Positions 1 to 62,276 of a stretch of 64,000 bases of DNA are shown here, in pieces; the stretch's first letter is position 1, and every line of letters starts with the position of its first letter. The notes beneath the pieces were generated by a model. That model did not search any database. It had not been told where the DNA came from and saw nothing but the letters and a program-made list of their open reading frames with translations. Origin of the DNA: a virus; IMG/VR virus record IMGVR_UViG_3300034062_003747, positions 1 to 64,000 of that record. The stretch is one strand, 5' to 3'. A program made the position numbers and the translations under genes.

Positions 1-491
1 TTATTTATTATTATTTTTTCGTTTTTACGTGTTACCTTTAGATTAAAAGTAAAATCTCTACGAAGATTATCGGTTTCAATTACCCCAGTCATATGTTGAA
101 TACCATCTATCCAATGATTTGGTGGGTTTATTGTCATTAAATTAATATCCGGTGGGGTTCTGAATGTAAATCGGTTTTGTATAGTAACTGTACCCATACC
201 AAAATGAGAATTTATTGATTGATAACCAGTATGTTCACCTTCATCTAAAATTTCAATTTTTGTGTGTTGTGAACCCTCCCCACCATCCCAAATAACCGAA
301 AAAGTTTTTAATGATTTTATAGCAAAACCATATTGGTTTCCAATTGTCAAAGGTAAACAAAAATAAGCGTGTTTTACAAACCAATCTCTTTTTATTTTAC
401 CCTTCAATGGTTCAATTATTATTTCATTTGAATTAATAAAATTTTCACTTTCGGGTATTGTAACTATTTTATTTTTTGGTATTGTTATCAT
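1..491 (-). CDS. DUF6065-like protein (3' end runs off the window)
   Basis: Not in the ORF track. Translated by hand from the ATG at 491 (ATGA overlap with the upstream stop): MITIPKNK...KRDWFVKHAYFCLPLTIGNQYGF...SHFGMGTVT...GVIETDNLRRDFTFNLK. The HAYxCLPLxxxNQYG motif is characteristic of DUF6065. Confidence 0.7.
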   Translation of the reverse strand, partial: MITIPKNKIVTIPESENFINSNEIIIEPLKGKIKRDWFVKHAYFCLPLTIGNQYGFAIKSLKTFSVIWDGGEGSQHTKIEILDEGEHTGYQSINSHFGMGTVTIQNRFTFRTPPDINLMTINPPNHWIDGIQHMTGVIETDNLRRDFTFNLKVTRKNEKIIIN

Positions 492-1210
492 AACCTATTT
501 ATTTTCATTAATATTGAATCGTTAATTTCAACCTTATAATTAGTATTTTCCACATCCCAAAGATATTGACTTAATACACCCTCAGGATGATGTATATATT
601 TATATATATTAGAATTAATTATTTTATATAATTTACAATACCAATCCATAGAATCAGACGAACCATATGCTAATTGGTCATTTGGCATATATTTTGGTCC
701 AACATCTTTTAACATCCGTTTCATTTCAGATGTAAATGGGTTATTTATATTTTCATTTGGAGGTAAATAAATTGTATTATTATTTACGTCATTTATTATA
801 AAATTTTTAAAAAACAAATCAAATCTGCAACGTATAATTACATCATACTTTATATTGTTTTCAAATTCATATTCTTTTCGTAATTCATTTGATTTATCAA
901 TACTATACCACATCATTAAAGTGTTATAAAATCTAGATTCACCAATTTTTTTCTTAAAGGTATCATATTCAGTAGAATCTATTTGAATTTTTTTGGGTTT
1001 ATAAAAATCAATAAATTCATAATTAATTTTATCAAAATTATCATTATAATTTTCTATATAATGATGTGGCACCATTTTACCCTTAACATCCCAAGTGTGT
1101 ATAAACACATCTACATTATATTTTTCTATAATTTTATTTTTTATAGAATCATATGATGATTTCCAATTACGAGTTTGACCTGATAGACATAGTGCTATTT
1201 TCATAACCAT
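488..1210 (-). CDS. Putative glycosyltransferase-like protein
   Basis: KIALCLSGQxR, DVFIHTW and YDxIIRxRFD motifs, typical of phage/NCLDV GT-like proteins. The start may be at 1204. Confidence 0.55.
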   Translation of the reverse strand: MVMKIALCLSGQTRNWKSSYDSIKNKIIEKYNVDVFIHTWDVKGKMVPHHYIENYNDNFDKINYEFIDFYKPKKIQIDSTEYDTFKKKIGESRFYNTLMMWYSIDKSNELRKEYEFENNIKYDVIIRCRFDLFFKNFIINDVNNNTIYLPPNENINNPFTSEMKRMLKDVGPKYMPNDQLAYGSSDSMDWYCKLYKIINSNIYKYIHHPEGVLSQYLWDVENTNYKVEINDSILMKINRL

Positions 1211-1736
1211 TCATTTTATATTTTGCATCAAACGTCCAAAAAGAAGTTAGTGTATATCTTATACCATTTGTTATTTCGTTTACCCCGTGTAAATATTCTA
1301 AGGTACCTGGAAAAAATACCAACGTATTTGGTTTTGGTTTTAGTTCAATATTTTGATTTGGAAAATATATCTTACCCCCGTCATAATCATCGTTTAAATA
1401 ATAAACACAACCAAAATTTCTCCAAAAAAACGGGTGTTCATCATTTTTATTTTCACCATCTGCATGAGGATGTTGTATATCGCCTACCTCCCACTTTACT
1501 AATCCTAAATAATCAGGATATATTTTATCAGTTAATTCAAAATCAGATTTTATTTTATTTTCCAAGCCTTTTAAATAATTAAAATTAGTTTCAGCAGGTT
1601 CGTAAATAACTCTTCCACTCCAATTATCGTTTGGAATACGATTACCCCATTCCTTTGTTTCTTTGGAATAATTTAAATATTTTTCAAATTCACCATCTGA
1701 TAAATAGTTTTCAGTTATTGATATAAAATTTTTCAT
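1167..1736 (-). CDS. 2OG-Fe(II) oxygenase, prolyl 4-hydroxylase-like
   Basis: HxD (HAD), YLNDDYDGG, distal His (HGV) and the 2OG-binding Arg (GIRYT). Confidence 0.85.
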   Translation of the reverse strand: MKNFISITENYLSDGEFEKYLNYSKETKEWGNRIPNDNWSGRVIYEPAETNFNYLKGLENKIKSDFELTDKIYPDYLGLVKWEVGDIQHPHADGENKNDEHPFFWRNFGCVYYLNDDYDGGKIYFPNQNIELKPKPNTLVFFPGTLEYLHGVNEITNGIRYTLTSFWTFDAKYKMNGYENSTMSIRSNS

Positions 1737-1753
1737 TTTAAATATTTTATTAA

Positions 1754-2878
1754 TTAAAATTCGTCATTTAAATTTCCACAATTGGCATTACTTGTAAAAC
1801 TTACACCATCCCAATATCTCACAACAGTTCCGTTTGAGTAATAATCTCCTGTGGCAGCCGTTCCACTACTATCTGAATATAATGATGTTGCATTACCAAA
1901 TGATGAAAGAGGTGGTAAATAGTAAGTATCTTCACTAGCTTGACTATCACATGCCGCTTGAGCACTACCCGCACGTCTTAACGCCACTGCCACATTACTC
2001 GCCGGTGGAGGCGGAGGAGGAGGAGGTGGTGGCGGTGCCGGACAACTACTTATTGTATTAATAACCCCACTACCTTCCACATAATAAACCGTTGTTCCAT
2101 TTGAATAATACCCATCAGCTGCGTTCGCACTACCATCACTTGCTGATTTTAATACACATTGTGTAATAAGTGTTGAACAAGTACTCCAAACTCCGGTAGT
2201 TACTCCCATACCGCAAGCCAATGCATCATCTCCCGCATTATATCCAAAAGTAAATGCATGATATACTATCGCCGGTGGTGGTGGCGGTGGTGGAGGCGGT
2301 GGCGGTGGCGGTGGAGCTACAAAACATACAAAATTAATTGTTCCATAATTTTTATTTGATGGATTATTTTTATCTCTTACACCCACCCAATATTGTCCAT
2401 CTGCCTGACCATAAAATACTTTAGTAGCAGTTCCATAATCAGTCCAATCTCCATCAGGTGCACTAAATACCGCGGACTCAGAAGTTTTAAGACCGGTAAT
2501 TTGATAAGTTCCACTACCATTTACAGGATTACTAATTGTAATTGTTGCCTGACCAGGATTCGTGCTAGTACAAGTATTAGACACCGTAATCGCAACGACA
2601 GCCGGTGGAGGCGGTGGAGGTGGAGGTGGCGGAGGCGGTGGCGGTGGTGGAGGCGGTGGTGGCGGTGGCGGTGGTGGAGGCGGTGGTGGAGGAGGGGCTG
2701 GCCCACCTGCACTTTTTCCATAAAACTCATCCATACCCAATTGATTAGTACCATCTGTTGTAAATGAAACCGAATACGCAGTTCCAGCTGCAGCCATATC
2801 AACTTGAGTACCAGATGCGATTGCTCTATCGGTATTAAACAAATCAAATGATATTTCGCCTGAAGGTGGTAATGCCAT
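1754..2878 (-). CDS. Polyproline-linked tail-fibre-associated adhesin/virion protein
   Basis: MALPxSGxISF...DEFYGKS N-terminal module, as seen in genes downstream of S74 tail fibres. Three Pro tracts separate Cys-bounded beta-rich domains, two of which contain YYSNGT. Confidence 0.65.
   Translation of the reverse strand: MALPPSGEISFDLFNTDRAIASGTQVDMAAAGTAYSVSFTTDGTNQLGMDEFYGKSAGGPAPPPPPPPPPPPPPPPPPPPPPPPPPPPPPPPAVVAITVSNTCTSTNPGQATITISNPVNGSGTYQITGLKTSESAVFSAPDGDWTDYGTATKVFYGQADGQYWVGVRDKNNPSNKNYGTINFVCFVAPPPPPPPPPPPPPPAIVYHAFTFGYNAGDDALACGMGVTTGVWSTCSTLITQCVLKSASDGSANAADGYYSNGTTVYYVEGSGVINTISSCPAPPPPPPPPPPPASNVAVALRRAGSAQAACDSQASEDTYYLPPLSSFGNATSLYSDSSGTAATGDYYSNGTVVRYWDGVSFTSNANCGNLNDEF
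2603..2695 (-). repeat. Pro-codon tract (31 consecutive CCN codons); shorter tracts at 2273-2314 (14) and 2003-2035 (11)
   Basis: Counted directly from the GGN-rich plus-strand sequence; mixed CCA/CCG/CCT codons. Confidence 0.95.
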
Positions 2879-5800
2879 TATTTACGTTTTTTTAACTCTT
2901 CTATTTCCCTTTTCAATTCCTTTACTGCTTCTACTAAAAGTGGAACTATTTTATCGTAATCTATTGTTAAATAGTTTTCACCTGTTTTTGAACTACCATC
3001 TTCTTCATTGATATCAAACGGGGCTCTTTGTATAACCTCAGGTAATACCTCTTCAACTTCCTGAGCTATTAATCCAACTTGTCTTTTATTATTATTATAA
3101 CCAAACTCTTTTGCTAATTCATTTTGTCTATAATATACTCCATTTATTTTATCTAATTTTTCTAATGGATTATCTATTTTTCCTTCTATATTTTTTAATC
3201 TTCTATCAGAATAATATGCTATAATATTTCCTGTTGCAGATAAAATACCACCAACTTGTACAAATGGTGTATTTGTATTTAGATATGTACCCTCTCTTTT
3301 TACTCTAAAATAAATATTAGTATCATTTATTACTTGAAATCCCTCATCAGTTAATTCAGTAATCAGAACAGATTGACCTAATGCTGAATTTGTAAAAGTG
3401 CTAACAGCGGAAGAAAATGTTGTGGGTGCAGTAGTATCGCTAAATAATATTCGTGTCCAAAAAACTCTAAGATAATGTGTTCCGGTTTGGGAAAATGCAA
3501 TACTAAATGCTTTACTACCCGCAGAAATTGCCTGTCCATTACTACTTGCAATTACTTCTTCTGCAACTATACTATTAAATCCACTATCAGTTGCTATTTG
3601 AATACCCATACCTATGTATAGATATCCATCAAACCCACCCGGAGTAGTTGCTAGTGTCCCTGTAGCACCATAACCCACAGCTCCAGAATATGTTCCGGTA
3701 TTTGGAACATTAAATGTATTACCAGACCCATAAATTCTTTGACCACTTGCTTGTGAGGTTGAATCATTAAATGCACTTATATTGATATTAGGGCTGTTCA
3801 ATGGTAATGTTACTGAACCAGCACCACCTATTGTTGAAAGTGGACCAGATTTAATTGTCAATTTTGGTGTACCTGCTGCGTTATTAATTGCAATTAAAGG
3901 AGTTGGTTTAAATTCTAATCTCCTAACACCGCCAACCAAAGGCGATGATAATTTATCAGTTTCAATAGTCCACCCACCAATTGTTCCTTGCGTAGCTACA
4001 ACCCCCGCAGTATTAAGAGAAAATCCGGTACCGACTAATCCACTACTATTTAGAACAACAGAATTTCCTATTGATATAGCTGAACTTGCATTTGTTAAAT
4101 TTAATCCTGAATTATTTAAACTATATCCAGTACCTGAAATACCACCTGTAAATGTACCGGTGGCTGCGGAGATATTACCATTAAACGTTCCGGTTGCTGC
4201 CGATAACGCACCACTAAAAGTTCCTCCACCAGTTATAGTTAGATTAGTACCATCCCATTTTAAAGAATTAGTAGCAGATTTTAGGGATAATCTATATACG
4301 GGTGCATTATTAACATTAACCACCCCTATAAAAATACCATTTACATCATATCCCTGTGAACCTGCAGTTGAACTTTGGCCGATAGATATATACGGATATG
4401 CACTACCACCTGCTAAAGTAATATTTGCTGCATTTACTGCGGTTGCAGCCGTACCAATGTTTAAAGTATTTTGAATAAATGATTCTTCAAATATACCTAT
4501 TTTAGCTGCTACAAAAAAATCTTGTGTACCTAATGATGTCCAACCTGTTTGTGCTGCTTGAGATGGTGAACCATTTATTACGTTTCCTGTCTCTGAAAGA
4601 TGTCCTCTAGTAGTAGCATAGTATGTGTTATATGGTGCGTTTCCAGTTGAACTCCATAAGACAGTATCTCTCCTACCCGTAGCATCCGTTAACCCATTTG
4701 AAAATTGATATGTTCTACCACTTGTCCAAACTCCGGTATGAACTACACCAGGACCGGTTACACCAGTACTACCGGGTGCACCGGGGTCACCATTCGTTCC
4801 ATTCGTTCCTGCAATAGATTTAGAAATTGTAAATTTAATAGTAGCTGTATTCGGAGTTCCCTCCGAATCGACATATGAAATGGTTACTATACCTGTATTA
4901 TCAGTTGCAGAAATAGCAGTTACATCTATTGTTGATGTTGATGGGGTTGTACTTGTAACTGTAACACCGGTTACATTTGTTATTTTATATTGAGAAGTAG
5001 TTAATGTACCACTATTGTATGTCAAAGCAGTTGAACCCTCAAATGCAGTTAATATTGGGTCTACAATTGTACCAGTCAACGTTCCTGCACTATTTGCTGC
5101 TACTGTTTGCGAAGCAGGGGTAATTGCAAATGTTATAGTAGGCACCGCCTTTTTAGCTTTAGCTAAAGAAATATTTCCAAATACATTTCTTGTTGTATTT
5201 TCTGAATCAACCACCGAACCTGTTACTGATATATCAACCGAATCCGTGCCATTTGCTATGTTTGGTAACGCAATTGTTGTAGTTGTTTTATTACCAATTG
5301 TATACGAATTTGTAGTAGTTGTATCTGGTGCTGATACTAATGTTTTTGTAGAACTAATACCATCGTATGCTTCGATTACTGATAAACTTGCAGTCACAAA
5401 TGCATCAATTTGTGCACCTGTTGATTTTGCAGTTGCAGTTTGATTATTATTACCAATTACAAAACTTAAAACAGGTGCAGCCTTTTTATTTTTAGTATAG
5501 GTTGCTACTTTGGTTACATCGGTTGTATCACCCGCACCATCTTTATATCGTACTCTTAATTCTAGAGAACCACTATCCGCATCTAATTGTTTAATCCAAT
5601 AATTAGTAGTTGAATAATCTAAATAGTTTGAACTACCAAATGAACCAGTATTAACACCGGTTGCTACTGCTGAAACGACATCAAATGAATTACTAATAAG
5701 TAATCCATTACTATGTGTTATACTTTCATTACCAACTTTTACACTCACCGAACCACTTGTCAATACAAATGAACCACTAGCTACAAATCCATTGGAAAGT

Positions 5801-8163
5801 GCGGGTAAGGATGCATTTTCATTTGTTAATGAAACTGATAACCCATCTAATATTTTTATAGGAGTTATTTTAATTGCATCTGAAAATTCATTACCAAATT
5901 GGTCAGAACCTGAAATAAAATAAGAGGTTTCGCCTGTTGAGAATGGGTAGGATGAGCCGGCTATTGTATAAGTATCAACCCCATTAGTTGCATTTGTAGA
6001 TACTAATGTTAGTGGTGGTTTTCCGCTATCCGAATTTACGGTCAATGGAATTATTGATGATGCTAAATTTTTTCTTTTTGCTTCTATTGTTATTATTTGA
6101 CCACTTGGATTTAGGGATAAATCAGTTGCTTTATAAATAAATTGATTTGTATTTGCAGTTACAAAAACACCAGGTGCATTATCACCATCTTCAAATCTAT
6201 AAATTGTTTCAAACTCATTTAATCCATCACATGATGCAGTATAAGCTATAGAACCAATCATTATTGAACTACTCAATTCGCCTTTAAAACTATCTATACT
6301 TAAATTTGCACCACCATCTCCTGCGTTAGTTAACCCGCCAGGATATGTTCCCACATAACTAGCAGGAACTATATAATTACCATCTGTATCAAACGCAGCA
6401 GATGCGTAGGTAACCGAACCGGTTAAATTTTGTCTTGTTACTTTGAATCCAACTTGTTGAAAAGCAGGATTACCAAATGAACCAGTACTAAAACGAAATG
6501 CGGTTCTATCTGATTCAAATGTTAGGATTTTGGATGTGGTTGTAAAACTATTACCACCATTAAATGTTTTTGAAGTTTTTACATCGACGGGGATATAGTT
6601 GTTATTTATATCGTAAAATTCAAATTTAAAATCATATGTCTCACTTGCAAGTTTACGAGGAATATCTTGTATTAGGGTAAATTCATCAGGTGAAAACGAA
6701 GTTTCTTGTGCGTTTTGTAAACTTACATTAGCTAAATACCAATCATCACCCGCAAACTCAAATACTAATTTAGCATCTCCGGTCTTAGTGGCCTTTACAT
6801 TTTGAGTTACGTTTTGTTTTGTAGTATATATCGCCGAATTAGCAACATTTACAATAGTTTGTTGTGGATAATCCGAACCACTAAAATATGCTTTTAAAGT
6901 TTTGTTTGGGTCAACCGAACCACTTAAAAGAGTTTTAAATGAAAGGGTATACTCTACCCCCTCAGTAAGAGATAGGGATTGGGATGTGATAAAAAGGGCG
7001 GTATTATCGTAATTTGTACCAGTATAATCTACTTGAATTGATGCGTTTAATTTATCTACATTGATTGTAATTGGATGTGTATTCGAACCACTTACCCAAT
7101 AATTTGTTATATTTGTGTCCGTAAACTGACCATAGGATAATTCCGTATTGGCAGTTGTAGTTATATCTTTTAGTATTTCTGATGATTCTAATTTAGTATC
7201 TTGTATGAATTGATAATCACCAACTTCGTTTCTAGATTTTCTATAAACCTTTACTCTCGCTACATCACCAACAAATGTTTTTAAATCTGATAATTGAATT
7301 TTAGCAAAAGAACCCGTCAATGCTGAGTTGATTATTGTTTGTCCTTCAATATGGTCAAATGTAGTTGTGTATGCAGTAGGCGGGAAATTTGAAACGGATG
7401 ATGAGAATGTATATGGAATATCTACAAATAGTTCTTTATTATTTAGGACCTCACGTATGGTTGCGGAATACCCTAATGATGGTATTTCTATTGTGTTTTC
7501 ATCAACGGATGATGTCCAATTTGAACCATCAGTAATCTTTAATTTATATAAAGTTCCGGCTGTCCAAGTTCTAATATCAGTACCATAAACCGGTTGTTGT
7601 GGTATACCCTCAACCAATCCCGTTTGAGTAATTGATGGGGTTGTTATGTTAAAAACGGGCTTATTTATCTCATCAATTGTAATTTTTGGTCTTTTATAAA
7701 ACCTAACAATTGTTTCGTTAGCAAGATTTTTATTTATATTAAATGTTCTTTCCCACTTAATATTATAGATACCACGCCACTCTGCAGGAACATCTCTAAC
7801 TACCCCATTATCATCAATATAGGTTTTTAATTCACCTAATACAGTAATTTTTCCTAAACCAATAGGAGTGTCCTCATAAACGTGAACTGATATAATTTTT
7901 GATATACCCTCATAATATTCAGGTATACCATCACCTGGTTCATAATAAATTGGAGTACCGGTGACATCTAATATTTCTATTTTAATTTCAGTCGTTTCTT
8001 TTAAATGTTCAGAACCCTCTATAAGAAATCCATTCTTACCACCTGTAAACGTATCTTTGAATTCGGTAATTCTAAAATATTCAGACGTTCTAACTTGGTC
8101 ATTTATAAATGTCCCAAAGTTTGATAGGTTTTGATAAGAAGCGAACGATTTAATTATTGCCAT
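2878..8163 (-). CDS. Long tail fibre/virion protein with C-terminal intramolecular chaperone (peptidase S74) domain
   Basis: 1761 aa, G/S/T-rich, with a short collagen-like GxY run. C-terminal SDRRLKNI...GLIAQEVEEVLPE...DYDKIVPLLVEAVKEL. Confidence 0.85.
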   Translation of the reverse strand: MAIIKSFASYQNLSNFGTFINDQVRTSEYFRITEFKDTFTGGKNGFLIEGSEHLKETTEIKIEILDVTGTPIYYEPGDGIPEYYEGISKIISVHVYEDTPIGLGKITVLGELKTYIDDNGVVRDVPAEWRGIYNIKWERTFNINKNLANETIVRFYKRPKITIDEINKPVFNITTPSITQTGLVEGIPQQPVYGTDIRTWTAGTLYKLKITDGSNWTSSVDENTIEIPSLGYSATIREVLNNKELFVDIPYTFSSSVSNFPPTAYTTTFDHIEGQTIINSALTGSFAKIQLSDLKTFVGDVARVKVYRKSRNEVGDYQFIQDTKLESSEILKDITTTANTELSYGQFTDTNITNYWVSGSNTHPITINVDKLNASIQVDYTGTNYDNTALFITSQSLSLTEGVEYTLSFKTLLSGSVDPNKTLKAYFSGSDYPQQTIVNVANSAIYTTKQNVTQNVKATKTGDAKLVFEFAGDDWYLANVSLQNAQETSFSPDEFTLIQDIPRKLASETYDFKFEFYDINNNYIPVDVKTSKTFNGGNSFTTTSKILTFESDRTAFRFSTGSFGNPAFQQVGFKVTRQNLTGSVTYASAAFDTDGNYIVPASYVGTYPGGLTNAGDGGANLSIDSFKGELSSSIMIGSIAYTASCDGLNEFETIYRFEDGDNAPGVFVTANTNQFIYKATDLSLNPSGQIITIEAKRKNLASSIIPLTVNSDSGKPPLTLVSTNATNGVDTYTIAGSSYPFSTGETSYFISGSDQFGNEFSDAIKITPIKILDGLSVSLTNENASLPALSNGFVASGSFVLTSGSVSVKVGNESITHSNGLLISNSFDVVSAVATGVNTGSFGSSNYLDYSTTNYWIKQLDADSGSLELRVRYKDGAGDTTDVTKVATYTKNKKAAPVLSFVIGNNNQTATAKSTGAQIDAFVTASLSVIEAYDGISSTKTLVSAPDTTTTNSYTIGNKTTTTIALPNIANGTDSVDISVTGSVVDSENTTRNVFGNISLAKAKKAVPTITFAITPASQTVAANSAGTLTGTIVDPILTAFEGSTALTYNSGTLTTSQYKITNVTGVTVTSTTPSTSTIDVTAISATDNTGIVTISYVDSEGTPNTATIKFTISKSIAGTNGTNGDPGAPGSTGVTGPGVVHTGVWTSGRTYQFSNGLTDATGRRDTVLWSSTGNAPYNTYYATTRGHLSETGNVINGSPSQAAQTGWTSLGTQDFFVAAKIGIFEESFIQNTLNIGTAATAVNAANITLAGGSAYPYISIGQSSTAGSQGYDVNGIFIGVVNVNNAPVYRLSLKSATNSLKWDGTNLTITGGGTFSGALSAATGTFNGNISAATGTFTGGISGTGYSLNNSGLNLTNASSAISIGNSVVLNSSGLVGTGFSLNTAGVVATQGTIGGWTIETDKLSSPLVGGVRRLEFKPTPLIAINNAAGTPKLTIKSGPLSTIGGAGSVTLPLNSPNINISAFNDSTSQASGQRIYGSGNTFNVPNTGTYSGAVGYGATGTLATTPGGFDGYLYIGMGIQIATDSGFNSIVAEEVIASSNGQAISAGSKAFSIAFSQTGTHYLRVFWTRILFSDTTAPTTFSSAVSTFTNSALGQSVLITELTDEGFQVINDTNIYFRVKREGTYLNTNTPFVQVGGILSATGNIIAYYSDRRLKNIEGKIDNPLEKLDKINGVYYRQNELAKEFGYNNNKRQVGLIAQEVEEVLPEVIQRAPFDINEEDGSSKTGENYLTIDYDKIVPLLVEAVKELKREIEELKKRK

Positions 8164-8247: not shown

Positions 8248-8424
8248 ATGAAAAAATACAAAATGGTTCAAATTTCAGAAGAACATCATTTAAAACTAAA
8301 AGAATATTGTGAAACCCATGATAAAAAAATGAGTAAGGTATTAGAAAGAATTATCGATACTAACTTTTCAGTAATAAAATTAAAGGTAGATACTAATAAA
8401 AATGAAAATACATTACGTGTATAA
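8248..8424 (+). CDS. Small ribbon-helix-helix-like DNA-binding protein
   Basis: MKKYKMVQISEEHHLKLKEYC...KMSKVLERII has an RHH-like pattern. The ATG at 8248 is preferred over the TTG at 8209. Confidence 0.55.
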   Translation: MKKYKMVQISEEHHLKLKEYCETHDKKMSKVLERIIDTNFSVIKLKVDTNKNENTLRV

Positions 8425-8860
8425 ACTTACACACATTCATACTAATGAATTTTATTTTGGAAGTAGAACAACAAATAATAAAGCATTATTTGATGAATAT
8501 TACGGGTCTGGAAAATGGAAACCAAACAAAGAATTATTGAAAAAAGAAATAATCAAAGAAGATTTTACTAATAGAAATAGTGCCGTTGAATTTGAATCTA
8601 ATTTAATATCTGAACATATTACAAATCCATTAAATAGAAATTATCATATCCCAAATAGTGGGTTTCATAGAGAAGGGTCTGCGGGAATGTTATTTAGAGA
8701 TATAAAAACTTTATATACTATGGCAGAAAAAGTTGGTGTGGAAATAAAATCAAAATGGGGATTGGATGAACAAGAATTAGTTTATGAATTATTACAAAAC
8801 GAAAAAACCCTCAATGATAAACAAAGAGGGTTTAATATAACAATAGCTAAATGTAATTAA
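8402..8860 (+). CDS. GIY-YIG-like (Seg-type) homing endonuclease, short
   Basis: YVYKLTH...FYFGSR...YYGSG, with a conserved Glu helix (AVEFESNLI) and Asn. Confidence 0.65.
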   Translation: MKIHYVYKLTHIHTNEFYFGSRTTNNKALFDEYYGSGKWKPNKELLKKEIIKEDFTNRNSAVEFESNLISEHITNPLNRNYHIPNSGFHREGSAGMLFRDIKTLYTMAEKVGVEIKSKWGLDEQELVYELLQNEKTLNDKQRGFNITIAKCN

Positions 8861-14219: not shown

Positions 14220-14608
14220 TCTCTTTTGAAGAATTTTCCCATTAAGTTCTCATTTAGAGATTTTTCATCTGCTAATACGTTGTTTGCAAATTGTTCTTGT
14301 AATTCGTAATATGTGAGGGCTTTCTTTGATTGACAAAATCGTAGGATTTCTTTGGTAATGGGTTCATTTGTCCATGTTTTAACAACATCATTTGATGAAC
14401 AATAATCTTGCCATTTCATTTCTTTGACAACTTTACGATTTCGTTTATACCCCTTTAATGGGGCTAGAGTTCTATGTGAGTATAAACTTTTTTTACCAAT
14501 ATAATATTGGCCGGTTATATTGTGGGTTATTTTATAAATAAAACCAATTGTACCTTCGGGCATTTCAGATATTTCTGATATAACTTTTTCTTTATATATC
14601 CAATTCAT
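14204..14608 (-). CDS. GIY-YIG family endonuclease
   Basis: GFIYKIT...YYIGKK motif, W.DY.SS, and conserved Glu and Asn. Confidence 0.75.
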   Translation of the reverse strand: MNWIYKEKVISEISEMPEGTIGFIYKITHNITGQYYIGKKSLYSHRTLAPLKGYKRNRKVVKEMKWQDYCSSNDVVKTWTNEPITKEILRFCQSKKALTYYELQEQFANNVLADEKSLNENLMGKFFKRDLEIS

Positions 14609-15164
14609 AATTAAAATTTTGAAAATCGTCTTTATATTTAGTTCTAACCCAATCTTTTATCCAATCTTCCCTATACAAAGATTTATAATATTTGTGTTGA
14701 TTTAAAGTTGGGTGTCTTTCGTATATAGAGTTTTTATTCAGATGTGGTATTCTAGGAGTAGGGTGTCCTAATTTTTGGAATAGGAAATTTACATCGTTTG
14801 AGTAATTTTCATACCTGCCTATAAAACTAATGTTTCGTTTTTCAGTTTTATTATTATTTACAAAAAATGTTTGAGGGAAATATAAGAAGTTGTATTCAAA
14901 AATAGATTTAATAAAATTACCAAAGGTTTTATTACACCCCATTCTCAATTCATGATGATACCACGATGCTAATCTTGTAAAAGGATTTCTAACAAATGTA
15001 AAAATAAAATAATCTTCAATATCTCCAAATGCGGATAAATCGTTATGTGTAGTTACAAACTCCGTTCCTTTAATTGTTGAGAGAATTTCACTAAGGGAGT
15101 TACCACCAGTTTTAGGTATATGAAGAAACGCCCACTTTTCGGAATGGTTTATTAATAACGCCAA
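14592..15164 (-). CDS. Sulfotransferase family protein
   Basis: PAPS-binding FLHIPKTGGNS and FVRNPFTRLAS motifs; FIGRYE. Confidence 0.85.
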   Translation of the reverse strand: MALLINHSEKWAFLHIPKTGGNSLSEILSTIKGTEFVTTHNDLSAFGDIEDYFIFTFVRNPFTRLASWYHHELRMGCNKTFGNFIKSIFEYNFLYFPQTFFVNNNKTEKRNISFIGRYENYSNDVNFLFQKLGHPTPRIPHLNKNSIYERHPTLNQHKYYKSLYREDWIKDWVRTKYKDDFQNFNYELDI

Positions 15165-36911: not shown

Positions 36912-38627
36912 CTATTTTATTTTTTTCTTAACGATATAGTTGTTAAGAACTAAGGTATCCATATCACAATCTAAAAATGTATCTATTGCATCTTTGGGGG
37001 TGTTTACAATGGTCTTATCTTTGACGTTGAATGATGTATTCAAAACAATTGGATACCCATTATCAATTTCTAATTGGTCAAGTAATTTGTGAATTCTATA
37101 ATGTTGTTTACGGCTAATAGTTTGAATTCTAGCAGAACCATCTATATGTGTAATTGCTGGTAACTTTTTTCTATGTTCTTCTTTTACACTCACTACTTGA
37201 TTCATATATGGAACAGAGTGTTTATAATCAAAATATTTTGTAAATACTTCTAGTTTTACTATTGGTGCAAAAGGTCTAAAACCTTCTCTCTTTTTAATTA
37301 CCTTATTTACTCTTGCTTTCATTTGTGGGTCTCTAGGATTTGCAAGTATAGAACGATTACCTAATGCTCTTGAACCAAATTCCATTCTACCTTCATACCA
37401 ACCAATAACATTACCATTTGTAATTTCTTTCGAAATAATTTCAATTAGTTCTGAGTGGTTTTTATATTCATACCAAACATCATCTTTAAAATTTTCTAAT
37501 TCTGTTAAAAATTCATCATTTGATTGATATGGTCCTAAATATGGATTTGAATTATCCACTTTAGTTGCCGTTTGGTTATGTCTGTAATAATATTCTAATG
37601 CGGCACCAATAGATGAACCGGCATCAGATGGTGCAGGTGGAATCCATAATTGTTTATATCGGGTTTCTTTAAAAATCTTTCCGTTTGCAGTTCCATTATA
37701 TGCACAACCACCACTCAAACACAAATTGTTTGTTGCTTTAATAAAAAACATTTTATTTAATAGTTTAAAAAAATATTTTTCATATTGTGATTGAATTGTT
37801 GCTGCTAAATCTTTATGTTGTTGTGTTAACTCTTCTTCTGGTAATCTATTTGGAAACCCAAATAAATTTCCTAATTTTTCGTTAAACATTGCTGAATCCG
37901 AATAGTCGTATTCAAAATATTCCATATTAATTTCAAACCCATCATCGTCTGTTGGTTTAATTAAATTTGAATATTGTTCAGAATATATTTCAGAATTACC
38001 ATATCCTGCTAATCCCATTACCTTATATTCACCTTCGTTTGGTTTAAATCCTAAAAAAGCAGTCATAGCAGAATATAACATTCCTAATGAATGTGGAAAC
38101 TTTATACTTTGCATTTTAATAATTAAGTTTTGTTCCGCATAAGCCATAACTACTGTATCCCATTCTCCCACCCCATCGACTGATATAATTGCTGTTTTAT
38201 CAAATGGTGATGTATAATATGAATATGCTATATGTGACATATGATGGTCACCATATTCTAAGATTATAGTTGGATTCGTAATCTCATATATTTTAGATTC
38301 AATTTCTTTAGCCTGTTGTTTATTTGAATCAATAATAGTTTTTCGTTTGAAGAAATTAATTAATCCGCCTCGTTTAGTAGATTCTTCAATTCGTTGTAAT
38401 TTTATTTTCGGGTTTTCATAAAATGCAACTACTGATATATCATCACCAGTAATATTATTGACATCATATAACCATTTAATTGCATTGGATGGAAATGAGG
38501 CATCATGTTTAATACCTGTAAATCTTTCTTCCTCTACCGCACCAATAACTTTTCCATCTAATATTAATGCAGCAGATGCATCGTGATAACCACATGCAAT
38601 GCCTAAAATATATTTTTTATTCATCAT
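36912..38627 (-). CDS. Carbamoyltransferase (CmcH/NodU family)
   Basis: HDASAAL, EEERF, HHMSH, DGVGE, GGCAYN, EFGSRALGNRS, KKREGFRPFAP and LNTSFN motifs. Confidence 0.95.
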   Translation of the reverse strand: MMNKKYILGIACGYHDASAALILDGKVIGAVEEERFTGIKHDASFPSNAIKWLYDVNNITGDDISVVAFYENPKIKLQRIEESTKRGGLINFFKRKTIIDSNKQQAKEIESKIYEITNPTIILEYGDHHMSHIAYSYYTSPFDKTAIISVDGVGEWDTVVMAYAEQNLIIKMQSIKFPHSLGMLYSAMTAFLGFKPNEGEYKVMGLAGYGNSEIYSEQYSNLIKPTDDDGFEINMEYFEYDYSDSAMFNEKLGNLFGFPNRLPEEELTQQHKDLAATIQSQYEKYFFKLLNKMFFIKATNNLCLSGGCAYNGTANGKIFKETRYKQLWIPPAPSDAGSSIGAALEYYYRHNQTATKVDNSNPYLGPYQSNDEFLTELENFKDDVWYEYKNHSELIEIISKEITNGNVIGWYEGRMEFGSRALGNRSILANPRDPQMKARVNKVIKKREGFRPFAPIVKLEVFTKYFDYKHSVPYMNQVVSVKEEHRKKLPAITHIDGSARIQTISRKQHYRIHKLLDQLEIDNGYPIVLNTSFNVKDKTIVNTPKDAIDTFLDCDMDTLVLNNYIVKKKIK

Positions 38628-58799: not shown

Positions 58800-59963
58800 T
58801 TAAAAATTTGTGAATATTTGTATATTTTGATAATCCGTTTTCAATTTTTTTAATTTATTAACTTCGTCTAAAAACATTACATGCTCAGGATGTTCTGAGT
58901 TTCTTACATTTTTTATTTTAAATTGTCCTTCTGTAAATGTTCCCCAGTTATTAATATGGATAAAGTTTACTTCCGTTTTCATACCATTTAGTTTTTGTAA
59001 GTAATCTGCCAATTCCACAAACCCAATCATTTCCGTATAATTATTATTTTGAACTACGAATGTTAATCTTACAAAATCTAAATTTGGTATTTTAGTGAAT
59101 ATAAATTGTAAGTTTTTATAAAGAATATCCCAATTACCACCTAATCTTATTTGTTCATAAGTTTCCTTTGTACATGCGTCTATACTAATTTCTGCCGTTA
59201 TTCTTGGTATTGAATGTAGATTTTCTAATCTATCCCATATTTTTTCTGTCCATCCGTTTCCGTTTGTGTGTAAATGTAAATTTTTTGTATTTGGGTATTT
59301 TTCCATTGTAATGGATTTTAAAAGATTACGCCAAAACTCACTCCCAAATCCATCGCCACTTGCGGTAATGTATAATTCGTGAGCATCATTCATTGCAAAT
59401 TCTAAAATTTTATCCTGTATGGTTTCTGATTTTTCTCTTTCTTTGCCCGTAGTATTAATAAAATCGGTTCTACATGATGGGCATTTAAGGTTACAACTTC
59501 TATCATGTGAAAAAATAACACACTCGGGCCCCCATGGTAAATCTGATATTTTTTCTTCAATAATTTTTTTAAACTTCTCTTCTCCGTCTGGGTTAATGGT
59601 TTTATTGTTCCAAAGTTTATGAAATGTTTTTTCGTCAAAAATTGGGAAATACCCATTATCATAAACACTTTCATCTATTTCTTCATTATTCCATTTTTGT
59701 AAAAATCCACATTCTTTTTCATCACAATATTTCATACTACCATCGTGCATAGAATCTCTCAATTTGATTGCAACCTCACTATTCCAAATATTATTCCAAT
59801 TATCTGTCAATGCATTACCAGCAGGTCCACACTTAACCCAAGCGTTTACCCATCGTTTTTCTTCCTCACTCCAAGCACCGGAACAACATTGCCAAACTAA
59901 ACCATTTGACTGAAATTCGGCATTTCTGAATGGTGCTACACAAAATCCTTTTTTATTACTCAT
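58800..59963 (-). CDS. Radical SAM protein with N-terminal SPASM/twitch-like Cys domain
   Basis: FCVAPF...CC...C, CNLKCPSC, HTNG and SIDA. Confidence 0.88.
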   Translation of the reverse strand: MSNKKGFCVAPFRNAEFQSNGLVWQCCSGAWSEEEKRWVNAWVKCGPAGNALTDNWNNIWNSEVAIKLRDSMHDGSMKYCDEKECGFLQKWNNEEIDESVYDNGYFPIFDEKTFHKLWNNKTINPDGEEKFKKIIEEKISDLPWGPECVIFSHDRSCNLKCPSCRTDFINTTGKEREKSETIQDKILEFAMNDAHELYITASGDGFGSEFWRNLLKSITMEKYPNTKNLHLHTNGNGWTEKIWDRLENLHSIPRITAEISIDACTKETYEQIRLGGNWDILYKNLQFIFTKIPNLDFVRLTFVVQNNNYTEMIGFVELADYLQKLNGMKTEVNFIHINNWGTFTEGQFKIKNVRNSEHPEHVMFLDEVNKLKKLKTDYQNIQIFTNF

Positions 59964-61186
59964 ATTAACGTTGTATTTTTTTTAGGAAAATTTCCATTAT
60001 TGATTAATATGTAACTTTCAATTGGAAAATTTAATCTTGTTGATTTAGGTACATTTAACACTTTTTTTAATTGGGAATTATTTTTAATACATACTAAATT
60101 TTTATTTGATATTATCTTTTCTAATTCATTTGGTAATTTTTTTTCTTTATATGTTTTCCAAAAAGTAGTATTGTTTTTTGAACAATTATAATGATGTCTA
60201 ATTATAATCATATTTTGTCTTTGTATATTATTTATACTTTCATTAAATTCATTTTCACTTAAAGTATTATTTAAATATTTTTTAAAAGTTTTTAATTGTA
60301 CCACAATTGTCATAATTGAGGTTGCTTCCAATGGTTCTAAAAAACCAGAACTTAACCCTACAATTAAACAATTATTTATTAATGTTTTTTCATAAGTTCC
60401 TGGTTCAAAAGTAATTGTTTTATTAATTTGTATATCATTTCCAAATTTGTTTATTATTTCCGTTTTTGCAATATCTTCTGAAATAAGTTTTTTGTCAAAA
60501 ATATATCCACACCCCCATCTATTTTGTAATGGTATTTGCCAAACCCACCCATAATCCATTGCAATTGCATTTGTTCTTGTATTAACCGTAACATCATTCC
60601 TTTTTAAGAAAAAAGGTATTGCTGTATTAACTATTAATTCATCAGCATAAGTTTTCCACTTTAATTTAAATAGTTTTGGGGTTAACCTATGAAATCCACT
60701 ACAATCAAATACAAAATCCGTATCATAATTGATATTATTTTCTAATTTAATACTATTAATATCACCTTTTTCATTTTGTTCAATATTTTTTATTTTCCCA
60801 TCTATGTGTTCTACTCCTCTGATTATCGCAATTTCTTTTAAATAATCTGCTAATAATCTTGCATCAAAATGATATGCATATACACTTTTATCTTCTTCCA
60901 TTAAATCACCAAATCCATGAACATATGAATAATCTATATCTGACCAGTTGTGGAAATGAATACCTATTTTTTTTGTTCCATTTACTTTTTTTAATAAATC
61001 GCTTTCATCAATTTCTAATTCCGATAGGAAATTTACCAAATTTGGAGTACTCCCTTCACCGGCACCTAGTATACCAATTTCCGAACTTTCTATTAGTTTT
61101 ACGTTTGAATTTTTGTAATATTTTTTTGCAAAAATTGCAGTTAACCATCCGGCTGTTCCTCCACCAATTATTATAATATTGTTCAT
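59960..61186 (-). CDS. Flavin-dependent (tryptophan) halogenase family protein
   Basis: GGGTAGW, GAGEGST, AYHFDA, DCSGF, GWVWQIP (WxWxIP) and FLEPLEATSI. Confidence 0.9.
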   Translation of the reverse strand: MNNIIIIGGGTAGWLTAIFAKKYYKNSNVKLIESSEIGILGAGEGSTPNLVNFLSELEIDESDLLKKVNGTKKIGIHFHNWSDIDYSYVHGFGDLMEEDKSVYAYHFDARLLADYLKEIAIIRGVEHIDGKIKNIEQNEKGDINSIKLENNINYDTDFVFDCSGFHRLTPKLFKLKWKTYADELIVNTAIPFFLKRNDVTVNTRTNAIAMDYGWVWQIPLQNRWGCGYIFDKKLISEDIAKTEIINKFGNDIQINKTITFEPGTYEKTLINNCLIVGLSSGFLEPLEATSIMTIVVQLKTFKKYLNNTLSENEFNESINNIQRQNMIIIRHHYNCSKNNTTFWKTYKEKKLPNELEKIISNKNLVCIKNNSQLKKVLNVPKSTRLNFPIESYILINNGNFPKKNTTLI

Positions 61187-61665
61187 ATCAACGTTGTTTT
61201 TTTAATTAAATCCTCATAGTTAACAAATAACAAAGCACTTTTTCTAATTCCTTTTGTTATTTTACTTATTTCATGTAATCTATCTGATTTAAAAAAATAA
61301 GGAATTCCTGGTGTTTTGTCAACAATAGAATCGGGATTATATAAAATATATTCCCCTCCATCGTAATCATCATTTATATGAAATCCCACAACATACGCCC
61401 TATTTTTATAACCCCTTTCAACTGAATCAATATGTTTACCAAAATAATCACCCACATTATATTTATGGAGTGTTAAATTATAATCGTAAGATTTTAGTTT
61501 TTCACCACTTTCAATTTCAAACCAATTTAATAGTTTAGTGGTTATATTCATTTCATTATTTGTAAGAACCGCAAATTCGTAACTTCGGTTTTTTAATTTT
61601 CTAAAATCCGTATTATTCCAAAAAGATTTTAAAAAATCTAATTCAATATCACTATATAACTTCAT
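61183..61665 (-). CDS. 2OG-Fe(II) oxygenase
   Basis: HID, NDDYDGGE and HEI...GIRKS. Confidence 0.85.
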   Translation of the reverse strand: MKLYSDIELDFLKSFWNNTDFRKLKNRSYEFAVLTNNEMNITTKLLNWFEIESGEKLKSYDYNLTLHKYNVGDYFGKHIDSVERGYKNRAYVVGFHINDDYDGGEYILYNPDSIVDKTPGIPYFFKSDRLHEISKITKGIRKSALLFVNYEDLIKKTTLI

Positions 61666-61667
61666 TT

Positions 61668-62276
61668 TTAATATATATTTTTTTTAGAACCATAATCCTT
61701 AGTATAATCTAATATTGTAAATCCTCCTGCATAAACGATTCGTTCTATATCCGAACTACGATTTAATTCAGGTTTGTGTAATAAATTTGCTGGAAATAAA
61801 ATTAAATCTCCTACTTGTGGTAAATACGATACTTCTATACCTTCATTTGTTCTAAATAATATTTTTCCTTCTTGCTCGTTTAAATTATCAGGCATTTGTG
61901 CATAATAAACAAATGACCAATCTATATCCGTTTTTAAAGTATCGCTAAAAGTATGTGTATGAAATCTTGTCCAGTTGTTATTTTTATTAGAGACATATAT
62001 CCATTCGGTACTAAAATATAAATTTATATCATTTGTATTATAATTTAAAAATTTAAAAATTTTTTTATATATTTTAGTATTTAAATTTTTAATTGCTTTT
62101 GTTTTTAAAATTATATATGATTGAATACCATGTTCTTTAACAGATTCGACTGATGTTTTTTTATTTACTTTCATATTAAATTTTAAATCTTTTATTAATT
62201 CAAAATTATTAATAGTTGGTAAATTTGTAATATAAAAAGAAACCACATCAGTTATTTTTATTTCTTTAAATTTCAT
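61668..62276 (-). CDS. Putative 2OG-Fe(II) oxygenase (TIGR02466-like)
   Basis: HTH, SFVYY and GDLILFPANLLH...ERI. Confidence 0.8.
   Translation of the reverse strand: MKFKEIKITDVVSFYITNLPTINNFELIKDLKFNMKVNKKTSVESVKEHGIQSYIILKTKAIKNLNTKIYKKIFKFLNYNTNDINLYFSTEWIYVSNKNNNWTRFHTHTFSDTLKTDIDWSFVYYAQMPDNLNEQEGKILFRTNEGIEVSYLPQVGDLILFPANLLHKPELNRSSDIERIVYAGGFTILDYTKDYGSKKNIY

Follow-up and report, generated by a model that had tools for sequence, protein, structure and literature searches.

We examined a block of five genes at the start of the IMG/VR virus record IMGVR_UViG_3300034062_003747, in which a protein with long proline runs is encoded between a tail-fibre gene and the gene for an oxygenase of the prolyl-hydroxylase type. 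The window, that is, the whole stretch of DNA that was analysed, comprises bases 1-64000 of the 77,825-base record, whose completeness is estimated at 44%. It has a G+C content of ∼30% and carries nearly all of its genes on the minus strand. PHROG matches were obtained to baseplate wedge proteins, a primase, a helicase and an SbcC-like nuclease, and many auxiliary enzymes are present besides; on these matches the source is an uncultured, large T4-like aquatic myophage, and the start of the window appears to be the far end of its tail-fibre module. The features of the block are as follows, the proline runs being named by their length.

2878-8163, minus strand: distal tail-fibre protein, 1761 residues, with a C-terminal S74 intramolecular-chaperone domain (PF13884 Peptidase_S74 and PHROG tail-fibre families).
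1754-2878, minus strand: linker protein, 374 residues, candidate substrate (open reading frame (ORF) with Pro31, Pro14 and Pro11).
2705-2878, minus strand: conserved N-terminal module of the linker protein (N-module), residues 1-58, ending in MDEFYGK (alignments of homologues).
2603-2695, minus strand: Pro31 linker (31 proline codons: 14 CCA, 9 CCG and 8 CCT).
2273-2314, minus strand: Pro14 linker (run of proline codons).
2003-2035, minus strand: Pro11 linker (run of proline codons).
1167-1736, minus strand: 2-oxoglutarate (2OG)/Fe(II) oxygenase of the prolyl-hydroxylase type, 189 residues (PF13640, PDB relatives and conserved residues).
488-1210, minus strand: DUF7796 protein, 240 residues, predicted GT-A fold, candidate sugar transferase (PF25072, AlphaFold2 model and structure matches).
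3-491, minus strand: DUF6065 protein, first 163 of ∼243 residues, cut at the contig end, predicted dUTPase-like fold (PF19541).

The original prediction, an earlier reading of this DNA from its letters, had described the five genes as a closely spaced or overlapping series on the minus strand, and all five ORFs were indeed found in this order. Base 2878 is common to the stop codon of the fibre gene and the start codon of the linker-protein gene, a gap of 17 bases (the largest in the block) separates the linker-protein and oxygenase genes, and there are overlaps of 44 bases between the oxygenase and DUF7796 genes and of 4 bases between the DUF7796 and DUF6065 genes. Two other IMG/VR contigs (L003 and L004) contain 100% identical copies of the region, so the proline tracts are not an accident of assembly. 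The proline runs are also written in mixed CCA, CCG and CCT codons and, taken together with the identical copies, this shows that they are real coding features. Pro31, Pro14 and Pro11 are the sole runs of at least five prolines within long ORFs of the 64-kb window, the only other run, of five prolines, lying inside a 79-codon frame. Searches of isolate phages, with DNA and with protein, matched neither the region nor the linker protein.

The fibre protein matched PF13884 at residues 1652-1710 of 1761 (E 1.7e-12), the place of a C-terminal chaperone domain, as well as PHROG tail-fibre families, with phrog_5668 as the best match (1.1e-30). The linker protein encoded after it consists of the N-module of ∼58 residues followed by three small globular modules on polyproline linkers. 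It matched no Pfam family, and a search of the PDB returned low-complexity proline matches only. Residues 93-188 gave no more than an Ig-like (immunoglobulin-like) or SprB-like lead, and the label 'adhesin' that the protein had been given therefore follows from the position of its gene and could not be upheld from its domains. The comparison of its linkers with extensin did not stand either: the Ser-Pro(3-5) motif is absent and the runs are uninterrupted prolines. The N-module is kept in homologues that, without exception, come after an S74 fibre gene, and we infer that it docks the linker protein onto the fibre.

Two observations on relatives concern the linkers themselves. Between the otherwise near-identical L009 and L010, the first proline run differs in length (23 and 29 residues), which indicates that linkers grow and shrink fast. 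In L007:7159-8305 (= L029), the linker gene is split into two frames just past the second proline run, giving ORFs of 229 and 260 residues; slippage in the CCN repeat, misassembly or a programmed frameshift might each account for this.

The oxygenase matched PF13640 at 40.8 bits (cut-off 27; E 4.6e-10). When a profile of 36 of its relatives was compared with the PDB, all five matches at E ≤ 1e-3 were prolyl 3- or 4-hydroxylases. These were P3H1 (prolyl 3-hydroxylase 1, 2.4e-14), the 216-226-residue chains 3itq, 5hv0 and 5iax (∼3e-10, profile positions 5-171 of 187), whose entry names read prolyl 4-hydroxylase (P4H) or procollagen-proline dioxygenase, and 5c5t ('Prolyl 4-hydroxylase', 1.2e-5), which we take to be the PBCV-1 enzyme. 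The iron triad (His91-x-Asp93 and His150) and the 2-oxoglutarate-binding Arg160 are 98-100% kept in 42 dereplicated relatives; all four residues are invariant in the oxygenase alignment and match up with those of P3H1 and of the 3itq and 5iax P4H chains. The earlier assignment to the P4H type is thus supported by the Pfam match, the PDB relatives and the catalytic residues, and the protein is apparently an active enzyme of the prolyl-hydroxylase type. In isolate phages, its only matches were cyanophage 2OG oxygenases, at <45% identity, and at ≤35% where more than half of the query was covered.

The next gene product, previously called glycosyltransferase-like, matched PF25072 (DUF7796) at 32.9 bits (cut-off 27). 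An AlphaFold2 model built from 51 homologues had a pLDDT (predicted local distance difference test) score of 92.4. Its best VIA-align match was 4cj8, the bacterial GT6 enzyme BoGT6a (Z 12.5, root-mean-square deviation 3.5 over 192 residues), and the 50 rows consisted mostly of GT-A glycosyltransferases, the remainder being nucleotidyltransferases of the same fold. Foldseek gave 4cjc as the best match (E 6e-8), and the top matches of both programs were all GT-A transferases. The description as glycosyltransferase-like therefore holds at the level of the model, from which DUF7796 is predicted to have a GT-A glycosyltransferase fold. Two aspartates that could belong to a DxD-like donor-binding motif, Asp131 and Asp178, do not vary among 51 relatives. 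In L009, a 276-residue protein replaces DUF7796, and no relation between the two proteins was detectable.

The DUF6065 fragment in the window matched PF19541 with E 6.7e-33. For the fold we used the full-length copy from L007, which is 98.8% identical over the window's 163 residues (E 3.7e-39 against PF19541) and gave an AlphaFold2 model with a pLDDT score of 84.6. The best VIA-align match of this model was 1dun (Z 8.9). Of the 21 best rows, 19 were dUTPases or dCTP deaminases, and herpesvirus proteins (8qdo and 7byf) made up the remaining two. Overall, 42 of 48,161 chains reached Z 2, and the likeness to dUTPases is one of fold, at 4-18% identity. DUF6065 is thus predicted from the model to have a dUTPase-like fold. 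The stretch GVIETD may resemble dUTPase motif III, and Cys45 is invariant. The family has 1784 relatives, mostly viral, and no match was found in isolate phages by tblastn even at E ≤ 1.

To what DUF6065 is fused was surveyed in 21 longer DUF6065-containing proteins (P0241-P0261). Cupin_8/JmjC hydroxylases were the partner in 13 of the 21 and a PF13640 oxygenase, in either order, in three; TPR repeats were found in two, and a cyclophilin prolyl isomerase, an HPAT-family domain (24.1 bits, cut-off 23.9) and a partial VIT1 match in one each. Two further DUF6065-oxygenase fusions occur in L066 and L124. The fusions to protein hydroxylases suggest that the dUTPase-like fold serves here as an accessory of protein modification, and DUF6065 may be a substrate-binding or oligomerising subunit. 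If it were a trimer, this would suit a trimeric fibre, which is speculation. A role in nucleotide or DNA modification, as the fold might imply, is unlikely given what DUF6065 is fused to: protein hydroxylases, a prolyl isomerase, TPR repeats and an HPAT-like domain. It is the JmjC fusions that give the DUF6065 Pfam model its best scores (E 1e-96 to 2e-100), and one of the DUF6065-fused oxygenases has a sub-threshold Tet_JBP match (22 bits, cut-off 34.9).

Homologues of the linker protein were then gathered from viral and metagenome contigs with the 58-residue N-module, and 30 contigs were scored. In all classes, the same 3′ flank is found beyond a variable segment: a 345-399-residue protein, a Methyltransf_24-like protein and a 283-residue protein. 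The segment between the linker gene and this conserved flank varies with the type of linker, as follows.

Pure polyproline (window, L005, L007, L009-12, L031, L034, L045 and L241): window-type oxygenase, then DUF6065, some with DUF7796 or the other 276-residue protein between them.
TPAP or PNVTPQVTPA repeats with a C-terminal Hint domain (L014 and L267-269): a different P4H of 399 residues, a GDSL-like protein, and HPAT-family (PF23452) and PF11397 proteins.
(P/T)PAP repeats, PTPAP-type (L024, L242 and L243): PF11397 and GT2 transferases, then a third P4H of 189-190 residues.
Poly-Thr (L008 and L016-18): a 314-323-residue protein of no named family, a glycosyltransferase-like protein (L016-18) and a radical-SAM/SPASM protein; no oxygenase.
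No linker (717-991 residues, BACON/Ig-like) or a bare Hint version (L026-28, L244, L246, L248-249 and L250): the conserved flank directly.

With four P4H-type queries, a P4H-type ORF was found in all 18 contigs whose linkers are Pro-rich (11 polyproline, four TPAP-type and three PTPAP-type) and in none of the 12 contigs with poly-Thr, no linker or Hint only. The three P4H types are mutually 28-29% identical where they align, indicating that three different enzymes were recruited beside Pro-rich linkers. When whole records were searched, a 130-kb poly-Thr record contained no PF13640 gene and the linker-less records contained such genes only ≥38 kb from the fibre locus; DUF6065 was absent from the poly-Thr and linker-less records, one of which is complete (289 kb). 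The HPAT-family protein of the TPAP-type loci matched PF23452 at 39.5 bits (cut-off 23.9).

The linker classes are interleaved on the tree of the flank gene, with seven class changes against a minimum of four. The polyproline locus L005 lies within 0.02 substitutions per site of the TPAP locus L014, and L267 and the window have almost the same fibre N-terminus. Such interleaving of classes on close backbones implies that the linker and its enzymes are exchanged as a unit. We therefore considered the following account, in which aquatic phages carry swappable cassettes that match the chemistry of the linker to the enzymes: polyproline with a P4H-type enzyme, DUF6065 and a GT-A protein; Thr-Pro repeats with other P4Hs and HPAT- or GT60-type proteins; and poly-Thr with other enzymes. 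These phages would then make hydroxyproline (Hyp) and Hyp-glycans on their host-recognition organelle, and DUF6065 would be a targeting or scaffolding subunit of P4H and JmjC hydroxylases. We advance this account tentatively, with somewhat less than even confidence in it as a whole. That the phage chemically modifies its own host-contact protein is probable from the gene content of these loci; that the oxygenase hydroxylates prolines in the linkers of the adjacent protein we judge to be evenly balanced between true and false.

Several features of these loci are recorded here for their own sake. The flank protein (L003:2818-3855, L005:9295-10332 and homologues) borders every cassette class and has 54 invariant columns in 12 sequences. 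The flank gene had been considered as a GT-B glycosyltransferase from a motif, but there was no Pfam match and, with a 12-sequence profile, no PDB match, and the label was dropped. Hint domains directly follow the Pro-rich or N-terminal part of the protein in L014:1539-3242, L267:4573-6192, L250:2554-3243 and L124:7415-8089 (minus strand), assigned from Pfam Hom_end_hint and PT-HINT matches below the cut-off; the window linker protein has no Hint domain. From their position, these proteins may cleave themselves or transfer the Pro-rich piece. The poly-Thr cassettes are L008:8001-11420 and L016:7001-11086, and L016-18 hold a 340-residue protein that is weakly Mannosyl_trans3-like. The poly-Thr locus may be a Thr-directed modification cassette. 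No relation was detectable between the HPAT-like protein and the 314-residue neighbour of a poly-Thr homologue, and the GT60-like protein of L024 had no match in the PDB.

We then approached the question from DUF6065, counting features within 6 kb in 80 viral loci. The window-type oxygenase was present in 74/80 loci and was directly upstream of, or fused to, DUF6065 in 50/80; DUF7796 was present in 27/80 and an ORF with at least nine consecutive prolines in 25/80. All 25 of these Pro-run ORFs adjoin the oxygenase: 23 are directly upstream of it, one is upstream with a frameshifted piece between (L029) and one is convergent and downstream (L100). The polyproline carriers vary, including small N-module proteins, proteins of 923-953 residues, fibres of 1531-1802 residues (Pro14 to Pro36) and a Cys-rich protein of 326 residues. 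On the DUF6065 tree, polyproline adjacency requires at least five changes, four of which are forced by well-supported branches.

A third survey started from polyproline itself, with a scan for 16 consecutive CCN codons in viral contigs that found at least 80 loci. Among the matches listed, classed by the longest covering ORF, ∼24 were polyproline and ∼40 were polyglycine on the other strand, which served as an internal control. A PF13640 gene was found in 3/25 polyproline and 2/34 polyglycine records searched, again among the matches listed. One of the two polyglycine cases had the gene 235 kb from the repeat and the other (L135) was misclassed. Once L135 had been corrected, 3/26 polyproline records among the matches listed had a P4H no more than 3 kb from the proline run, compared with an expectation of ∼0.15 from the control rate (Poisson P ∼5e-4) or 0.45 from the pooled rate (P ∼0.011). 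In L124, the order is a tail-collar-like fibre, a Pro19-Hint protein, a sulfotransferase, a methyltransferase and a DUF6065::P4H fusion. L135:7001-8402 encodes a P4H with an N-terminal hydrophobic stretch and, directly after it, a 172-residue protein that has 27 prolines and a hydrophobic stretch of its own; its neighbours read as glycosyltransferase-like and sugar-epimerase-like genes by sequence alone, and from its gene content L135 would be an algal or giant virus contig.

Several results weigh against the matching of linker and enzymes. On the flank-gene tree, Pro-rich and other linkers are separated by two changes only, leaving one or two independent pairs and no valid statistics; much of the 18 versus 0 split is thus shared descent and not 30 independent observations. 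The oxygenase-DUF6065 pair, often with DUF7796, has no Pro-rich neighbour in 22/46 scorable loci, a count in which L029 was assigned by hand to the polyproline side; for four of the 22, the contig begins inside the upstream ORF. G008, a complete 102-kb record, encodes a fibre, the oxygenase and DUF6065, and none of its ORFs exceeds six prolines per 20 residues. Another complete record with DUF6065, G007 (166 kb), has no run of 10 proline codons, and its sole Pro-rich repeat, (PKPKPDQPKPGQ)n, is ∼90 kb from the DUF6065 gene. Conversely, 22/25 polyproline records (at least 16 proline codons) among the matches listed had no PF13640 gene, and three of the PF13640-free records are estimated to be 91-100% complete; polyproline as such therefore needs no P4H. 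For the sugar step, DUF7796 had no HPAT or GT60 match in the Pfam scan, hhalign gave a probability of 0.1% for a relation to the HPAT-like protein of L014, so that no link to Hyp-specific glycosyltransferase families was seen, and DUF7796 is missing from some polyproline loci (L005 and L031). GT60, moreover, also holds a Thr-directed trypanosome enzyme, according to a passage of PMC6939170, and GT60 genes beside Thr-Pro linkers consequently need not act on Hyp. The repeats in G007 belong to a protein of >3000 residues encoded at G007:C1:105712-118332.

The loci that lack a Pro-rich neighbour, and the complete genome without a Pro-rich ORF, are what would be expected if the oxygenase, DUF6065 and DUF7796 formed a general protein-modification module with another target, such as a site on the large fibre or a host protein, and had acquired the polyproline neighbour through a shared swappable fibre end. 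In L066 and L086, the module follows fibre-like proteins of 1797 and 1463 residues, respectively, that have no proline run, and DUF6065 is mostly fused to JmjC hydroxylases, which are not proline-specific (13/21 long proteins). Two observations speak against such a module: every run of at least nine prolines across the 80 loci borders the oxygenase, a pattern that spans at least 4-5 lineages and several architectures, and non-orthologous P4Hs stand beside the other Pro-rich classes and none stands with the poly-Thr or linker-less homologues in the same backbones. We regard this alternative as rather unlikely. As for the original prediction, its proposed co-occurrence of Pro-rich proteins with P4H genes held among the linker-protein homologues and failed for the oxygenase-DUF6065 pair, which often has no such neighbour. 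It had named independence of the orthologues from Pro-rich neighbours as an argument against itself, and this was seen in part, in the 22 loci and in G008, while the co-variation with linker class still holds.

Ribosomes stall on long stretches of proline, and related 2OG families include hydroxylases that modify the translation apparatus, known relatives acting on EF-Tu, RPS23 or EF-P partners. From this background it could be argued that the oxygenase hydroxylates a host translation component and eases ribosomes through runs of 31 prolines, and the enzyme does occur where no polyproline is encoded. This is very improbable: linkers of the TPAP type, with few consecutive prolines, still come with P4H, HPAT and GT60 genes, complete polyproline-encoding phage records lack any PF13640 gene, and no tRNA gene was found in the window.

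The linker-matched account also has to be set against one in which the enzymes serve, in an auxiliary role, to tailor a small peptide, a secondary metabolite or host surface sugars, with no tie to virion proteins. Many oxygenase-DUF6065 loci lie amid small non-structural ORFs, and the record also encodes, at 59960-62276, other 2OG oxygenases together with a tryptophan-halogenase-like protein. A passage of PMC2938197 suggests secondary metabolites as the products of the Syn9 dioxygenase array. In the window, by contrast, a single oxygenase lies on the same strand as the fibre genes and close behind them and is of the peptidyl-prolyl hydroxylase type, and the linker class and the enzyme set co-vary across the relatives. 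Tailoring of this kind is improbable.

The mechanism that we infer, from its choice of substrate and its pairing of oxygenase with DUF6065 to its docking, its glycosylation and its benefit, would run as follows. The linker protein, translationally coupled to the S74 fibre gene, would ride on the fibre by its N-module, with its three small globular modules held apart by rigid polyproline-II rods of 31, 14 and 11 residues. In the infected cell, before virion assembly, the oxygenase, working with DUF6065, would turn prolines of the rods into Hyp, and DUF7796 could then add sugars to the new hydroxyl groups. The fibre tip would as a result be stiffer, more hydrated and shielded from proteases or recognition. 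The last enzymatic step is possible but doubtful in this window: its sole support is a GT-A fold in the right place, and DUF7796 is not universal and has no known Hyp-transferase kin. Glycosyltransferases for Hyp had been predicted next to the oxygenase, and this was so in two other Pro-rich classes, where HPAT-family and GT60-type genes are found (L014, L024 and L267-269); in the window, the only candidate is DUF7796. The reading as a whole, linker hydroxylation followed by glycosylation, is partly supported, by comparative genomics only.

Elsewhere in the window, the sole sizeable plus-strand ORF near the fibre gene is at 8402-8860; it is homing-endonuclease-like (phrog_314, E 6e-11) and sits between the fibre gene and the SbcC-like gene. 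Other modification-type genes lie on the minus strand at 14592-15164, 36912-38627 and 59960-62276 and include galactose-3-O-sulfotransferase-like, Nol-like carbamoyltransferase and tryptophan-halogenase-like genes and two more 2OG oxygenases.

If the proposed modification takes place, Hyp, and perhaps Hyp-linked glycans, would be present in the host-recognition apparatus of a bacteriophage, with consequences for fibre mechanics, protease resistance and phage engineering. DUF6065, with its 1784 relatives, would gain a role, and the abundant, unexplained viral 'P4H auxiliary metabolic genes' would gain a structural function in the virion. P4H genes are among the most abundant 'auxiliary metabolic genes' of aquatic viromes, and a passage of a 2022 survey states that their viral use 'remains cryptic' (PMC9301287). 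Phage 2OG-oxygenase arrays have, going by part of the account in PMC2938197, been without a substrate since their description in 2010. The present locus sets a clean, Pro-only candidate substrate directly ahead of one such enzyme, and the question thereby becomes testable. We found no published account in which P4H genes of bacteriophages are linked to fibre-tip proteins rich in proline, and none that describes linker-matched modification cassettes or DUF6065 as a hydroxylase partner, in a literature coverage that mostly leaves out subscription journals.

The known systems that come closest differ from the present one in separate respects. Eriksson et al. reportedly described, in 1999, a P4H of the chlorovirus PBCV-1, for which the virus's own Pro-rich repeats were proposed as substrates. 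There, as in the window, a virus encodes a P4H-type enzyme and the candidate substrate is a set of Pro-rich low-complexity stretches in its own proteins. PBCV-1 is, however, a virus of a eukaryotic alga, whereas here a bacteriophage has the candidate substrate gene adjacent to the enzyme, pure polyproline and a DUF6065 partner. Freeman et al. are said to have reported in 2023 that mycobacteriophage virions are glycosylated on capsid and tail-tube proteins with no hydroxylase step. The likeness lies in phage-encoded glycosyltransferases that modify the phage's own structural proteins; that system reportedly differs in acting on capsid and tail-tube proteins and in dispensing with a hydroxylase.

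In plant and algal extensins (P4H, then HPAT/GT95) and in protist Skp1 (PhyA, then Gnt1/GT60), proline in stretches of the polyproline-II type is hydroxylated and Hyp is O-glycosylated. A passage of PMC12115135 has HPAT transferring arabinose to Hyp, a passage of PMC6939170 describes Gnt1 as the GT60 N-acetylglucosamine transferase specific for the Hyp of Skp1, and part of one genome paper annotates PF11397 as CAZy GT60 (PMC6418280). As in these pathways, a Pro-rich acceptor and a P4H are encoded together in the window, and HPAT-family and PF11397 genes stand beside P4H genes in L014, L024 and L267-269. Unlike them, the window has no HPAT or GT60 gene (DUF7796 with its predicted GT-A fold only), no Ser-Pro(n) motif and no secretory pathway, and the system is known here from its genes.

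The arrays of cyanomyovirus Syn9 are the nearest phage precedent. As set out in parts of Iyer, Abhiman, de Souza and Aravind 2010 (PMC2938197), the array has 10 dioxygenases along with two tryptophan halogenases and a protein of the dUTPase fold that carries a conserved cysteine, and secondary metabolites were suggested for such phage arrays. The same parts note bacterial operons that pair hydroxylases with collagen-like or tail-collar proteins, and predict that low-complexity and tail-collar proteins are hydroxylated and then further modified (PMC2938197). To judge from these parts of the paper, what the two systems share is that, in large aquatic phages, 2OG oxygenases cluster with a dUTPase-fold protein bearing a conserved cysteine; that the Syn9 protein is DUF6065 could not be shown, the tblastn search of isolate phages having been empty at E ≤ 1. 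The difference is that secondary metabolites were proposed for Syn9, whereas here a single P4H-type enzyme stands beside a Pro-only candidate substrate. Already known are a virus-encoded P4H that acts on Pro-rich repeats of the virus, the glycosylation of Hyp in plants, algae and protists, and glycosylated phage virions; this analysis adds the pure polyproline variant, a predicted GT-A fold for DUF7796, HPAT and GT60 genes as neighbours, and the fusions of DUF6065.

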